A stretch of 64,000 nucleotides of DNA from Eledone cirrhosa (GCA_964016885.1 CAXHJY010000079.1:124001-188000); one strand, 5' to 3'; shown: positions 164 through 63,262, counted from the stretch's first letter. Notes: generated from the sequence alone by a model not told the origin. Made by a program: numbers and translations.

Positions 164-428
164 CAATATATATATACATATATATATACATACATATATA
201 TATACATACATATATATATACATACATATATACATACATATATATATACATACATATATACATACATATATATATATATATATATATATACATATATGTA
301 AAGTTATATTTAAAATTGTTGGGTTACAACTAGTAAATATTTATAACTGATATAAAAGCACTCGACAAATATTTGGAGTATATTTACAATATTAAATAAA
401 TGGAAAACTATATTTATAAAACCATATT

Positions 429-494
429 TATTTCATTACATATATTTCGGGGATATCATATTAACAATATGCTATGCCTTCATCAGACAAAATA
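429..494 (-). ncRNA. Type I hammerhead ribozyme motif (mirror copy, GUA triplet)
   Basis: Mirror of 669-734 in the left palindrome arm; reads GAAATATATGTA-ATGAAATA. Confidence 0.75.
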
Positions 495-668
495 CAATAT
501 AAACAGTTTTATAGATAAATATATTCGACATACCGTAATAAACATCAACTTCATTTGAAGAGGTTTACTCTAGCAGTAGAGGTTTACTGCTAGAGTAAAC
601 CTCTTCAAATGAAGTTGATGTTTATTACGGTATGTCGAATATATTTATCTATAATACTGTTTATATTG

Positions 669-734
669 TATTTTGTCTGATGAAGGCATAGCATATTGTT
701 AATATGATATCCCCGAAATATATATAATGAAATA
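669..734 (+). ncRNA. Type I hammerhead ribozyme motif (PLE-like)
   Basis: Stem I TATTTTGT/ATGAAATA; CTGATGA at 677-683; stem II 684-714 (11 of 14 pairs); GAA; minimal stem III AT-ATAT-AT; AUA cleavage triplet. Confidence 0.75.
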
Positions 735-778
735 AATATGGTTTTATAAATATAGTTTTCCATTTATTTAATATTGTA

Positions 779-3325
779 TATATACATATATATATATATA
801 TATATATATATATATATACATATATATATATATATATATATATACATATATATATATATATATATATATATACATATATACATATATATATATACATATA
901 TATATATATATATATATATACATATATACATATATATATATACATATATATATATATATATATATATATATATATACATATATACATATATATATATACA
1001 TATATATATATATATATACATATATATATATATATATACATATATACATATATATATATATATATACATATATACATATATATATACATATATACATATA
1101 TATATACATATATACATATATATATACATATATACATATATATATACATATATACATATATATATATATATATACATATATACATATATATATACATATA
1201 TACATATATATATACATATATACATATATATATATATATATACATATATACATATATATATACATATATACATATATATATATATATACATATATATATA
1301 TATATATATATACATATATATATATATATATACATATATATATATATATATACATATATATATATATATATACATATATATATATATATATATATATATA
1401 CATATATATATATATATATACATATATATATATATATATATATACATATATATATATATATATACATATATATATATATATATATATACATATATATATA
1501 TATATATACATATATATATATATATATATATATACATATATATATATATACATACATATATATATACATATACATATATATATATATACATACATATATA
1601 TATACATATATATATATATATATATATATACATATATATATATATATATACATACATATATATATACATATATATATATATATATATACATACATATATA
1701 TATATATATATATACATATATATATACATACATACATATATATATATATATATATACATATATATATACATACATATATATATACATACATATATATATA
1801 TATATATATATATATATATATATATATATATACATATATATATATATATATATATACATATATATATATATACATATATATATATATACATGTATATATA
1901 TATACATATATATATATATACATATATATATATATACATATATATATATATACATATATATATACATATATATATATACATATATATATATATACATATA
2001 TATATATATACATATATATATATATACATATATATATATATACATATATATACATATATATATATATACATATATATATATATACATATATATATATATA
2101 CATATATATATATATACATATATATATATATACATATATATATATATATATATATATACATATATATACATATATATATATATATATATATATATATATA
2201 TATATATATACATATATATATATATATATATATATATATATATATACATATATACATATATATATATATATATACATATATACATATATATATATATATA
2301 TACATATATATATATATACATATATATATATACATATATATATATATATATACATATATATATATACATATATATATATATATATATATATATACATATA
2401 TATATATATACATATATATATATACATATATATATATACATATATATATATATATACATATATATATATACATATATATATATACATATATATATTTATA
2501 TACATATATATATATACATATATATACATATATACATATATATATATACATATATATATATATATATATATATACATATATATATATATATATACATATA
2601 TATATATATACATATATATATACATACATATATATATATACATACATACATATATATACATACATACATATATACATACATATATATATACATACATATA
2701 TATATACATACATATATATATACATACATATATATATACATACATATATATATACATACATACATACATATATACATATATATATACATATATATATATA
2801 TACATATATATATATATACATATATATACATATATATTTATATACATATATATATATATATACATATATATATATATACATATATATACATATATATATA
2901 TACATATATATATATATACATATATATATATATACATATATATATATATACATATATATATATATACATATATATATATATACATATATATATATATACA
3001 TATATATATATATACAGACATACATATATATATACATATATACAGACATACATATATATATACATATATACAGACATACATATATATATACATATATACA
3101 GACATACATATATAAAGACATACATATATATATACATATATACAGACATACATATATATATACATATATACAGACATACATATATATATACATATATACA
3201 GACATACATATATATATACATATATACAGACATACATATATATATACATATATACAGACATACATATATATATACATATATACAGACATACATATATATA
3301 TATATATATATATATATATATATAC
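779..3325. repeat. About 2.5-kb compound (TA)n/(TATACA)/(TACAGACA) microsatellite
   Basis: Seen directly; source of the Y/I/M/C ORFs. Confidence 0.98.
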
Positions 3326-4235
3326 ATGTGTGTGTGTGTGTAAATATGTGGCAAAGTTTTTCTTTCCAACATGTAATGAAAACATAGCCACATAGTTGGT
3401 TTATCTTCTCCTCTAAATCTCTCTATATTCCCTCGTGACTTCACTGCAGTCTCGTTACCACAGTTTCATCAAATGCTGAACATGAAATATACAAAATAAT
3501 AACAATAGAAAACTAAAGCTAGAACACGGTTTACAATACAACATAGACATTCACACACACACATATAGAAGTAGATGTGTACATGCACACACAGACATGT
3601 ACATACACACAGTCAGACATTTACACACACACACAGACAGACATTCATGCACACACACACATACAGTCAGACATGTACACACATACAGTCAGACATTCAC
3701 ACACAGACAGACAATCACATACACAGACAGACAAACATTCACACACACACACACACAGACAGACAAACATTCACACACACAAAGACAAACATTCAAGCAC
3801 ACAGACAGACATTCACTCACATACATTATATATAAACATATCTCTGTGTATGTATGTATGTGTATGTAAATGTGTGTGAGATTGTGTGTGTGAGTGTATG
3901 TGTGAGTGTGTATGTGTGAGAGAGAGAGAGAGAGAGAGAGAGAGAGAGAGAGAGAGTGAGTGTGTGTGTGTGTGTGTGTGTGTGTGTGTGTGTGTGTGTG
4001 TTTTACATTACATTTGACATTGCTATCAAAGGCAGTGAGTGATATTTGTTTTTGTCTTGCATAATCAAAAGTACCACAGCTCAGTGGTAGAAAGTGCAGA
4101 GATCAATATCTTAGATCAATATCTTAGATGAAGAGGGACATCTAGCCATAGATTACTGCCCCAGAAATATCTCATACAACCCATGCCAGTGTGGGAAAAT
4201 GAACATAAAACAATAGTGATCATTATAGACATAGT

Positions 4236-4503
4236 GGTAATGATGGTGATGATGATGATGATGGTGATGATGGTGATGATGATGGTGATGGTGGTGATGA
4301 TGGGGATGATGGTGTTGATGATGATGATGGTGATGAAGGTGAAGACAACCATGATGATGATGATGATGGTGATGATGGTGACGATGGTGATGATGATGGT
4401 GATGATGATGGTGATGATGATGGTGATGATGATGATGATGGTGATGATGATGGTGGTGATGTGATGATGATGATGGTGAAGACTATTGTTATGATGATGA
4501 TGA
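4236..4503. repeat. (GAT/GGT)n trinucleotide microsatellite
   Basis: Seen directly. Confidence 0.95.
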
Positions 4504-5021
4504 TTTTAAAATGAGAGGTTTAGTAAAATATGGGCTGAGGTACTCTCAGGTGGTTTGACATCAAAAGAGTTCAATAAATGTAAAATACACCAAACAAAAT
4601 ATAGAGATAATATGTTTTAAATGTCTGACATGGCCCTACCATGTTGCAACAGTCTTTTTAGTGTTTTTTTAAATATGTTTCATGAATATGTTTATGTCTG
4701 AACAGAACAAACTTAACAGCAGAGAAGCAATTAAAAGTAGCAAGGCGTCTCATAAATAAGAGCTGTTTGTTGTTGTTTTACCTTGGAAAGTGTAGCTATG
4801 AGGTAGTAAAATATAAATATAATCAATAAAATAAAAAGTCAAAAGATAGTTACTAGTATTAATGGCAGCTAATAGTATAGACTATATATTGAGTCTTTTG
4901 GGGGGGGGGGGGGGCAGGTATAGTAGTTTCAAGTCGATGATGAGTATACAAAAGCACAGTTTAACACTTTACATACCAATCAACCAGAAACCACCATTAA
5001 TTTTATGATACTAAACTGATT

Positions 5022-61346: not shown

Positions 61347-61621
61347 ATACATGTATATATATATATATATTTAAATATATATACATAATGATATATATGT
61401 ATATATATATAAGTATATATACATGATGATATATATGTATATATTTAAGTATATATGCATGATGATGATATATATGTATATATTTAAGTATATATACATG
61501 ATGATATATATGTGTATATTTAAGTATATATACATGATGATATATATATATATTATAATATTCAATGGATTAATGCACTGTGTTCTTGAGCAAGATATTT
61601 TTGTTTCATTACACAGTGCTT

Positions 61622-61965
61622 TATGTTAGGACTGAGGCCCCTATCGCTAAAACACAAATATACAGTGTGTTCAGGATAGGATTGGGTCCCTATCACTGAA
61701 ACACACTTATAGGACTGGGACATAATCCCTAAAGCACAAATATACAGAGTTTTCATGATACGACTGGGGCCTTATCACTAATATACATATACAGAATTTT
61801 CTTGTTAAGACTGGGGTCCCTATCGCTAGAACACATATAGTGGGGCCACTTTCACTAAAACACAGTCTTTCTGTGATAAGACTGGGGCCCCTATTGCTAA
61901 AACAGACATATACAGAGTTTTCATGTTAAAACCAGGGCCCCTATTACTAAAATGCAAATACAGCA
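61622..61965. repeat. Degenerate tandem repeat (about 50-bp unit) derived from a SINE segment
   Basis: Recurring TAAGACTGGGG(T)CCCTATC, also found in the CORE-like SINE body; preceded by TGTTCTTGAGCAAGA. Confidence 0.7.
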
Positions 61966-62034
61966 TATTTTGAGATGCAACCTTGATAAATGGCTAAATA
62001 CACTTCTATAAGTGGAAGCTGTAAATTGTATTTT

Positions 62035-62247
62035 TTAACCTTTTAGCATTTAAACCGGCCATACCCAGCCAGAATTCTCTCACCTCTATCTGTCAAACCA
62101 GCTGTAACTGGCCGCTCATATTTATGTTAAGATACTGTTCTCAAAATGAATAATATCAAAATCTCAGATTCGATATTATGTGAGGTAAAGTCTTCCCCGT
62201 GAAAATATAGTAGTATATATAGAGTAATGTAAATGCTAAAGGTTTAA
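62035..62247 (+). mobile_element. piggyBac-type MITE
   Basis: TTAA-CCTTTTAGCATTTA...TAAATGCTAAAGGT-TTAA. Confidence 0.86.
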
Positions 62248-62365
62248 GTTAATATATATATATATATATATATATTTATTTTAATATAGAAAAGCTTCTA
62301 CAGGACTAGAACTGTTTCATTCATGAGAAATGATTAATGATTTCTCATGAAATATAAAGATAGAA

Positions 62366-62435
62366 GTATATATAAAGATAGAAGAACCATATATATATAT
62401 ATATATATATATGGTTCTTCTATCTTTATATATAC
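62366..62435. repeat. 70-bp perfect palindrome centred on (AT)12
   Basis: GTATATATAAAGATAGAAGAACC-(AT)12-GGTTCTTCTATCTTTATATATAC. Confidence 0.93.
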
Positions 62436-62482
62436 ACACATACATTTATATAGTTATAATAAATGTGAAGACCACAATCCAG

Positions 62483-62533
62483 AGTTTCAGGTGATCCTGC
62501 TTAGGGTGAAAGCAGAAATTGTTTGCTTAAACT
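62483..62533 (+). ncRNA. Type I hammerhead-like motif with CAGGTGA core (variant or decayed)
   Basis: AGTTT-CAGGTGA-TCCT-GCTTA-GGGT-GAA-AGCAGA-AATTG-TTTGCT-T-AAACT; homologue of 34850-34900. Confidence 0.55.
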
Positions 62534-63262
62534 TTTAATCTGTACTAATAATATATAGATATATATGAATATATATACATACACAAACATATATAAATGT
62601 ACACGTATGATTATAAATATATATATAGAGAAATATATAGAAAAATAGAGAGATACAAAATGGATTAAACAAAATAAGAACCAAACAACAAGAAAAAAGG
62701 GGGGAAAACAATTAAAAGAACAACTAGTCTTTGAGGAGGTTAGAGAATGTGTGATGAAAGTACTTTATTGAACTAACCAATAACTAGTAGTGAATGAAAT
62801 AGCGTGTATGTTGTATTGGTAATATTGGCAACATGGCCATCCTCATATATATATATATATATATATATATATATATATATATGCACAAACACATATATAC
62901 ATAATATAAATATATATAGTCATACATATGTGTATACACACACACACGCACAAATATATATACATGCATACATATATATGTGTGTGTATATATATATATA
63001 TATACACGTACACAACTATATACACATTTATTTCCATATATACATGCACATATATTTGTATATATAATATATATAATTTATATATATATTTAGATATAGA
63101 TATACATACATATATAAATCCATACATATATATATATATATATTATATAATATACATATGATATATATATGTATATATATATATTATATAATATACATAT
63201 GATATATATATGTATATATATATACATTATATAATATACATATGATATATATATGTATATAT

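Follow-up and report, generated by a model that had tools for sequence, protein, structure and literature searches.

The stretch of Eledone cirrhosa DNA considered here (GCA_964016885.1 CAXHJY010000079.1:124001-188000; its whole 64,000 nt are called the window below) has a GC content of 34%, is full of microsatellites and short interspersed repeats, and carries 15 short non-coding inserts that are most likely new families of a known kind of element. It is very probable that the inserts are ends of Penelope-like elements, and probable that they are the 5′-truncated 3′ ends of about seven families of the Hydra clade. Penelope ends that are truncated, folded back, and equipped with hammerheads have been well documented (PMC4209133); new here are a bulged hairpin and, in relatives, a second hairpin before the start codon.

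The Inserts and Their Surroundings

All 15 inserts listed in an earlier note on this DNA were found in place. Its figure of about one per 4–5 kb stands as a count and not as an even spread: 8 of the 15 crowd into 56.1–62.6 kb. The several sequence families that it proposed turned out to number about seven (A–G), unrelated to one another in primary sequence. In each contiguous copy the sense strand runs from a type I hammerhead through an AT-rich spacer, a hairpin, and a tail of 23–62 nt into a microsatellite; hammerhead and hairpin share one strand, with the hammerhead 5′-most. The note had described a hairpin cap followed by an inverted hammerhead. Both components are there, and the polarity is the opposite, the antisense strand having been read. 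The "cap" is part of a one-sided 3′ extension, not a 5′ cap.

Nine of the inserts, named below by their first position, are head-to-head pairs (four symmetric, four lopsided, and one partial), and six are single arms. The arms of the symmetric pairs measure 201, 53, 79, and 35 bp, with loops of 4–8 nt. In all four, the hairpin and tail are present on one arm only, and the other arm ends 0–9 nt before the hairpin. The fold-back centre lies in an apparent natural stem II in inserts 37930 and 60388, and at 3–4 nt of self-complementarity in inserts 296 and 61197. Both the 5′ ends and the fold-back centres differ among copies of one family. The idea that the tail always sits on the shorter arm was dropped, since a short tail-less arm would be invisible.

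Family A has a tailed arm on the minus strand (296..578), made up of an upstream part of ~90 nt, a complete type I hammerhead (486-437), a spacer, a hairpin (379-358), and a 62-nt tail running into a TA microsatellite. The inverted tail-less arm is on the plus strand (585..785; hammerhead 677-726). The two arms pair over 201 bp with 3 mismatches around a 6-nt loop, and the end of the tail-less arm, ambiguous within 778-785, lies 0–5 nt short of the hairpin position. A degenerate TA microsatellite of 2.5 kb (778-3324) directly abuts this insert. Subfamily A2 is represented by a single tail-less arm (37810..37900, plus strand) with the hammerhead 3′ half and the spacer, ending in (TA)n, 2–7 nt short of the hairpin position known from reads. 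Family A has many copies in reads bearing the same organism label (2,708 contigs of X1 and 31,077 reads of the reduced-representation run X21), whose depth is not taken as copy number. The depth peaks at 406-445, ramps down steadily 5′ of the hammerhead, and is nearly zero by 580. These reads contain many variant copies and a sister subfamily with its own hairpin, whose tail-less ends lie within (TA)n, 2–7 nt from the hairpin. Runs of other organisms, X5 and X9, gave 3 and 0 records for family A, and the small shares in organisms B–L are no evidence. No RNA run was listed among those carrying the sequence.

Family B includes an older copy, the single tailed arm at 34600..34727 (plus strand; hammerhead 3′ half, hairpin 34656-34681, 45-nt tail into (TA)7), and the symmetric pair at 37930..38125 (plus strand). 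The latter has (TA)n on either side, two arms (37930-37982 and 37989-38041) that both contain the hammerhead 3′ half, a hairpin at 38051-38076, and a 46-nt tail. In the lopsided pair at 58897..59049 (minus strand), a short tailed arm with hairpin 58970-58945 and a 46-nt tail is joined head to head to a plus-strand tail-less arm with the hammerhead 3′ half. A relative of family B at 60910..61040 (minus strand) is a decayed lopsided pair with a hairpin at 60979-60957 (one pair broken), a 47-nt tail, and a decayed inverted hammerhead half.

Family C comprises four inserts. The single tail-less arm at 56111..56185 (plus strand) contains a canonical complete hammerhead (56129-56167) and ends 8 nt before the hairpin position. 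The lopsided pair at 60270..60375 (minus strand) consists of a tailed arm with hairpin 60318-60301 and a plus-strand arm starting at the hammerhead core. The symmetric pair at 61197..61346 (minus strand) has arms 61269-61303 and 61312-61346 with 0 mismatches and an 8-nt loop, hairpin 61263-61243, and a 46-nt tail. The tail-less arm at 62281..62351 (minus strand), with the hammerhead 3′ half, ends 7 nt before the hairpin position, and its short inverted remnant makes it the partial pair. Beside it lies a perfect palindrome with 35-bp arms, centred on a (TA)n run (62366-62435).

Family D occurs as a single tailed arm at 34745..34900 (minus strand), with a hammerhead (34895-34855) changed from U to A at core position 4, a hairpin (34825-34778) with a G-C bottom pair and a long loop, and a tail. 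Its other copy is the lopsided pair at 62455..62550 (plus strand), where a minus-strand tail end with no hairpin left is joined to a tail-less arm that keeps the three hammerhead stems and has two changes in the core. Family E is the symmetric pair at 60388..60630 (plus strand; arms 60388-60466 and 60471-60549, hairpin 60549-60575, 55-nt tail), which contains the hammerhead 3′ half with a palindromic stem III. Families F and G are single tailed arms on the minus strand: 14178..14272, with a variant hairpin (14229-14201), a tail of ~23 nt, and a hammerhead that is cut at the core and lacks the 5′ arm of stem I, and 22651..22760, with hairpin 22726-22703 and a tail of ~52 nt into (CA)n, with no hammerhead left.

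Insertion into (TA)n, a trait of the Hydra clade, is found in the window inserts, with 22651 adjoining (CA)n instead. Nine of the 10 hairpins detected by a structural descriptor have (TA)5 within 80 nt on the tail side, versus 6% of random positions. Copies of two or more abundant families resembling short interspersed nuclear elements (SINEs) were seen, one group at 1-163, 27050-27174, 36575-36736, 38152-38374, 44823-45069, 55953-56110, and 60680-60857, and another at 22316-22497, 33432-33626, 41648-41850, and 51889-52076; several begin right at (TA)n, and one adjoins insert 56111. Together with the base composition, such repeats give the DNA an octopus-like look. A short repeat with terminal inverted ends lies at 16472-16696, 53196-53974, and 62035-62247, one copy having expanded into a 72-bp tandem array.

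Hammerheads, Hairpins, and Their Relatives

A type I hammerhead near the 3′ end, a trait of EN+ Penelope-like elements, is present in the window inserts. The earlier note placed such a module in most of them; this holds for fragments, and a complete motif is kept in only 3 of the 15. A strict descriptor matched once in the window, at 56129-56167, while a relaxed one found four motifs in three inserts versus 0.28–0.7 expected from 60 shuffles: 437-486 (minus), 677-726 (plus), 56129-56167 (plus), and 34855-34895 (minus, with U4 changed to A). They stand single or inverted. The canonical three-stem form, a Hydra-clade trait, is present at 56129-56167 and in both family A arms, and the core of family D deviates. 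The hammerhead at 56129-56167 has a U.U pair at 10.1-11.1 and a GUA triplet, and it matches the hammerhead model with an E-value of 7.8e-6; the covariance model picks up families C and D. By eye, inserts 14178 and 60270 contain the core with the 5′ arm of stem I missing, little beyond the 3′ half remains in inserts 34600, 37810, 37930, 58897, 60388, 61197, and 62281, the hammerhead of 60910 is decayed, and 22651 has none. Among the matches listed for the Rfam scan of the window (150 of 532), there was microsatellite noise only and no hammerhead family. Both family D copies (34855-34895 and 62485-62530) have A for U at core position 4 with three stems intact, and this change may be an inherited variant rather than decay.

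Most copies in the window presumably could not cleave. The hammerheads are predicted to be passengers from the pseudo-long terminal repeat (pseudo-LTR), working as dimers in the full-length RNA. In family B, stem III shows a both-sided change between inserts 37930 and 58897. Among 16 metagenome loci described below, the hammerhead stems covary in 33 cells changed on both sides versus 9.4 in shuffled data (0 of 500 shuffles reach this value), a test that is inflated by the relatedness of the loci.

The hairpin has an upper stem of 2–4 bp above a lower stem RCTC/GAGY, with two bases bulging out on the 3′ side. The earlier note saw it in most inserts, and it is present in 11 of the 15, being absent in 37810, 56111, 62281, and 62455; this count includes the variant at 14201-14229, which the structural descriptor misses. 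The bare 10-mer of the cap is a weak signal, with 10 matches versus a shuffled mean of 3.87, and 1 of 100 shuffles reaches 10. Once the pairing arm is included, the signal becomes strong (11 matches at eight inserts versus 0.81 expected), and the structural descriptor gives 10 window matches versus 0.24 (maximum 2) in 200 local shuffles. Pairs were counted in 22 anchored hairpins, one per family (9 from the window and 13 from the metagenome). At each of 7 positions, 20–22 of the 22 are paired; pairs 1 and 5 vary on both sides (A-U/G-C and U-A/C-G). The bottom pair is mostly A-U in the window and G-C in the relatives. In the predicted folds the lower stem is formed in 9 of 10 hairpins. When a covariance model was built from 20 metagenome hairpins (L008 and L057 were left out for misplaced starts), ten of the listed inserts were the top 10 of its 11 window matches, 22651 being the best (E-value 1.6e-5) and 60549 being missed; the 3′ arm in this model is not independent of the window.

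Some look-alikes were set aside. Hairpin-like sequences at 14122 and 37291 were excluded as belonging to a LINE-like (long interspersed nuclear element) 3′ end in the opposite orientation. Two such 3′ ends, at 13775-14148 and 36945-37317, are 97% identical and show a weak C2H2 zinc-finger match; their terminal hairpin letters resemble the Penelope hairpin arm, but are reversed relative to the (TA)n flank. When the hairpin alone was used as a pattern, 18 viral loci matched; none of them has a hammerhead core upstream, and they were taken as chance. The full architecture pattern found no match in viral contigs, and the 26-mer of family C found none in viral or metagenome contigs.

Relatives were sought in metagenomes with a pattern that specifies the hammerhead core letters and the hairpin 3′ arm, with neither a stem nor the 5′ arm. 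It gave 106 loci, 25 of which fold as hammerheads; many of these are related, and they make up about a dozen families. The hairpin 5′ arm is present in 22 of the 25. The 81 loci that fail the hammerhead filter include 43 instances of a single recurring match; about ten others are decayed copies belonging to these same families of elements, and this accounts for the 7 failing loci that have the 5′ arm. Six loci (L030, L044, L052, L064, L076, and L085) show a minimal hammerhead followed by the hairpin 3′-arm letters without a pairing arm, and this group is possibly another Penelope-like clade sharing a sequence motif.

Twelve of the 25 loci, together with two decayed near-misses, match by tblastn the long open reading frames (ORFs) of L025 or L058; the queries were Hydra-type only, and all 14 matches are Hydra-type. 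These two ORFs have 1,916 relatives at an E-value of 1e-20 among 7,998 candidates. The membership features of the Hydra clade are RWK, DKT, and CxCX5C motifs, a C-terminal GIY-YIG domain, and a unit of less than 3 kb. In 40 aligned proteins, RWK is present in 34, ADKT in 38, and CxCX5C in 36, the two locus ORFs among them being 5′-incomplete; L033 and L016 carry all three. L033 has an intact 720-aa ORF, which also contains YRDD. The predicted structure of the L058 protein has telomerase reverse transcriptase (RT) as its best match (E-value 2.1e-8), and its residues 515-622 resemble the GIY-YIG domain of I-TevI (Z 8.9, root-mean-square deviation 2.4, 90 aligned residues). The structural model thus indicates that the relatives encode a telomerase-like RT with a C-terminal GIY-YIG endonuclease. 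Neither domain of the Hydra ORFs was named by Pfam or by a profile search of solved structures, and a viral fold search with the Hydra-type protein model returned generic polymerases only. A single-sequence model of the endonuclease domain was discarded as too poor to search, with a predicted local distance difference test (pLDDT) score of 49.

Twin Hairpins and the One-Sided Tail

A second hairpin-like site precedes the start codon in 5 of 5 loci that hold an ORF start (L016, L025, L033, L058, and L097, representing four families), and the published sequence of Hydra-1_Ajap likewise has two hairpins 5′ of its start codon. Tailed ends stop 8 nt (L033/L074) or 5 nt (L058) before this hairpin 2, with TA microhomology at that place. 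In 7 of 11 comparisons made in the window, the tail-less end lies 0–9 nt short of hairpin 1. The two hairpins are 62 nt apart in L033 and 73 nt in L016, which is near the 70–90 nt of the one-sided extensions in the window. The 5′ end of L033 consists of (TA)n, an inverted tail, a hammerhead, and a hairpin, the same layout as in inserts 58897 and 60270. Nearly complete tandem units of Hydra-type elements were seen at 1840-2456 of L016 and 1-2520 of L033; the partial tandem arrangement with pseudo-LTRs was not seen in the window and was seen in L016, L025, and L033.

Frangieh et al. showed that in the Poseidon element of the green anole (PAc), reverse transcription starts at two internal sites bounding the tail and needs RNA downstream of them, and that the protein extends both target strands in vitro (PMC11167929). 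This two-start precedent, together with the end positions, is the reason for viewing the hairpins as RT start signals. Judged from sequence, the chances are slightly better than even that the twin hairpins set two RT starts that produce the Penelope tail. The odds are even for the wider proposal of an RNA signal shared across the Hydra clade: a bulged hairpin, occurring twice in the 5′ untranslated region (UTR), would dock the RT and start complementary DNA (cDNA) synthesis 5–9 nt upstream on a stretch that pairs with TA, with one start for each nicked strand of the target, the hairpin spacing would equal the tail length, and twin priming would explain head-to-head insertions with a one-sided tail.

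The putative course of events is as follows. A tandem element would be transcribed through the ORF and the hammerhead into the 5′ UTR of the next unit, where, as seen in relatives, two hairpins lie ~60–75 nt apart before the start codon. The RT/GIY-YIG protein would nick AT-rich DNA, (TA)n being the preference of the Hydra clade in the literature and TA flanks being seen in the window. Having bound a hairpin, the protein would prime cDNA ~5–9 nt upstream, on an AU-rich stretch that may pair with the TA primer. A start at hairpin 2 would give an end with hairpin 1 and the tail, and a start at hairpin 1 would give a tail-less end, so that the hairpin in use would never be copied into cDNA. Synthesis would mostly stop early, the fall-off in family A read depth being the observed counterpart. 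Two cDNAs, one per nicked strand, would then be fused head to head, either at a natural stem or through 3–4 nt of microhomology, and the resulting fold-back would carry its tail on a single side; snap-back of one cDNA could yield the same junction. PAc is similar in having two RT starts downstream of the hammerhead and AT-rich targets. It differs in that its starts lie inside the ORF in an AC-rich stem-loop and its tail is 30–40 bp (PMC11167929), whereas the signals predicted here are a pair of bulged hairpins located in the 5′ UTR, with a one-sided extension of 70–90 nt.

Several observations weigh against hairpins as start signals. The second hairpins score lower than the first (11–21 versus 30–42 bits), their link to tailed ends comes from two families, and hairpin 2 is seen for no family of the window. 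Two of the 11 end comparisons are approximate, and two more (60910 and 60270) are decayed or misfitting. The tail of family A ends at several places (296 in the window, 314 in many reads), and extensions of 70–90 nt exceed the 30–40 bp usually described. Pairs 2–4 are invariant across the 22 hairpins, single hairpins fold weakly (z from −0.4 to −2.3), and the segment 38045-38082 favours another fold.

The main rival of the RT-start reading is that the hairpin acts at the DNA level: the GIY-YIG endonuclease would cut element DNA just upstream of it, resolving a snap-back, and the ends would be cuts rather than RT starts. Craig et al. attribute the tail to endonuclease resolution (PMC8557442), the tail is required for endonuclease recognition in D. 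virilis (as cited in PMC11167929), and Arkhipova et al. favour snap-back (PMC3846280), which the four symmetric pairs with their 4–8 nt loops do resemble. However, the G.U-type pairs found in 10 of 44 cells at hairpin pairs 6 and 7 preserve the stem on the RNA-sense strand only, the ends in the Poseidon assay are RT start sites (PMC11167929), and the TA microhomology at the ends suits priming. The DNA-level explanation is regarded as rather unlikely.

Placement Within the Penelope-Like Elements

Described Penelope-like insertions have a 5′ truncation, an adjoining inverted copy, and a tail at one end (PMC8557442, PMC3846280), and the order and one-sided extension seen in the window match this description, which supports the assignment of the inserts to Penelope-like ends. 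The earlier note had proposed severely truncated Penelope-like insertions that target (TA)n; the evidence supports this and allows a narrower assignment to the Hydra clade, whose elements are listed as (TA)n-targeted (PMC8557442 supplement). According to File S2 of the same study, Hydra-clade hammerheads often have U.U at 10.1-11.1, a stem III of 3–4 bp, and a palindromic loop, and families C, D, and E share these traits. In the published sequences of Hydra-2_Amil and Hydra-2_Ajap, the 3′ end consists of a hammerhead, a spacer, and a hairpin of the identical type, followed by ~25 nt. Among 26 supplement matches to six 8-mers, a full hairpin was recognized by eye in 4 of 4 Hydra sequences and in 0 of 22 elsewhere. 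In general, the inserts and the Hydra clade have in common the (TA)n target, a type I hammerhead ~100–200 nt from the 3′ end, an inverted 5′-truncated copy, and the bulged hairpin of three published consensus sequences (Hydra-2_Amil, Hydra-2_Ajap, and Hydra-1_Ajap). In contrast to published members such as Penelope-13_HM, there is no ORF in the window and stem III is longer in families B, C, and D. The families of the inserts also fail to match Hydra-1_Obim, and the core of family D is changed.

No description of the bulged hairpin was found in the surveyed literature; Repbase entries, Arkhipova 2006, and Luense et al. 2017 may mention it, and the main text of the Hydra-clade paper does not contain the words "hairpin" or "stem-loop" (PMC8557442). 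The earlier note suggested that such insertions may be poorly annotated in this lineage; in Octopus vulgaris, possibly a related genome, 6.83% is already annotated as Penelope-like, with 190 families (PMC13282606).

The Hydra assignment also meets with contrary evidence. No RT or GIY-YIG sequence was found in the window (Pfam on 150 of 179 filtered ORFs; best tblastn E-value 1.5), as truncated ends would lead one to expect, a Pfam negative being a weak test, since Pfam also misses true Hydra ORFs. No family A read in X1 or X21 led to an ORF. Clade membership therefore rests on non-coding features. By eye, a clear hairpin could not be recognized in Hydra-1_Obim, a published octopus element, and the window lacks the stem III motif of this element; Hydra-1_Amil and Hydra-1_Crog show imperfect hairpins only. 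Family A matches the hammerhead covariance model at chance level (E-value 5.7). Since the window supplied the metagenome pattern, neither the hairpin 3′ arm nor the U.U pair counts as independent, and that scan was biased toward Hydra-type ribozymes. Among published elements, the hairpin comparison covered Hydra, Naiad, and Chlamys DNA.

The inserts might instead be truncated ends of another Penelope-like clade (Neptune, Nematis, Naiad, or Poseidon) that shares the hairpin. Octopus has Naiads, which insert into (TA)n, and Neptune prefers microsatellites (PMC8557442); the Naiad elements of cephalopods also resemble the inserts in truncation, inverted copies, and a tail. In families A, B, and D the core is either atypical or missing, and the six metagenome loci with 3′-arm letters behind a different minimal hammerhead fit this explanation as well. 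However, Naiads are described as lacking canonical hammerheads (PMC8557442), while the window has one at 56129-56167, the Naiad and Chlamys sequences among the supplement matches have no hairpin, the 3′ ends of Naiad_Obim and Naiad_Ovul are unlike those in the window, and the ORF matches of the relatives, obtained with Hydra-type queries only, are all of the Hydra type. Another clade is improbable.

Slightly less probable still is that the inserts are true non-autonomous units (retrozymes or SINE-like elements) moved in trans by a Penelope-like enzyme, as the terms "non-autonomous" and "retrozyme-like" in the earlier note would imply. Family A is abundant and short, with its depth nearly gone by 580; animal retrozymes derive from pseudo-LTRs (bioRxiv 10.64898/2026.07.22.740005), and pseudo-LTRs can function in trans (PMC3846280). 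Non-LTR retrozymes are similarly non-coding, with a type I hammerhead (PMC7229834). However, they are tandem repeats of 150–450 bp with whole hammerheads, expressed as circles (PMC7229834), their RNA being self-cleaved and both linear and circular, whereas the inserts are dispersed, head to head, and mostly without a whole ribozyme, and no tandem hammerhead repeat was found among the tandem-repeat rows listed (150 of 224), so that "retrozyme-like" finds no support. "Non-autonomous" is unneeded: neither the 5′ end nor the fold-back centre is constant within a family, and the read depth is a ramp with no step. No ORF linkage was obtained for the window's own families.

DNA transposons of the miniature inverted-repeat (MITE) or Helentron/DINE-1-like families, judged by the general traits of those families, could offer long inverted arms, an end hairpin mimicking a ribozyme, and TA flanks, and they are strongly disfavoured, to the point of being hardly credible, by arm lengths and centres that vary within a family, by hammerhead stems that covary both in relatives and within family B, and by relatives that encode RT and GIY-YIG domains.

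As probable ends of Hydra-clade Penelope-like elements, the inserts are unremarkable remnants of a clade already known, and the hairpin that they share matters more. It bears on how Penelope-like elements pick internal start sites and on the origin of the one-sided tail, for which one in vitro study found two starts without a conserved signal. This question becomes directly testable with a hairpin that occurs twice and keeps a fixed distance to either type of end, and with the intact 720-aa ORF of L033, which lies beside its own UTR. In practice, the hairpin is a marker by which very short repeats embedded in (TA)n can be assigned to the Hydra clade; the ORFs of this clade are missed by Pfam. 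If the proposal is true, a telomerase-related RT would place its template through an adjacent RNA stem.

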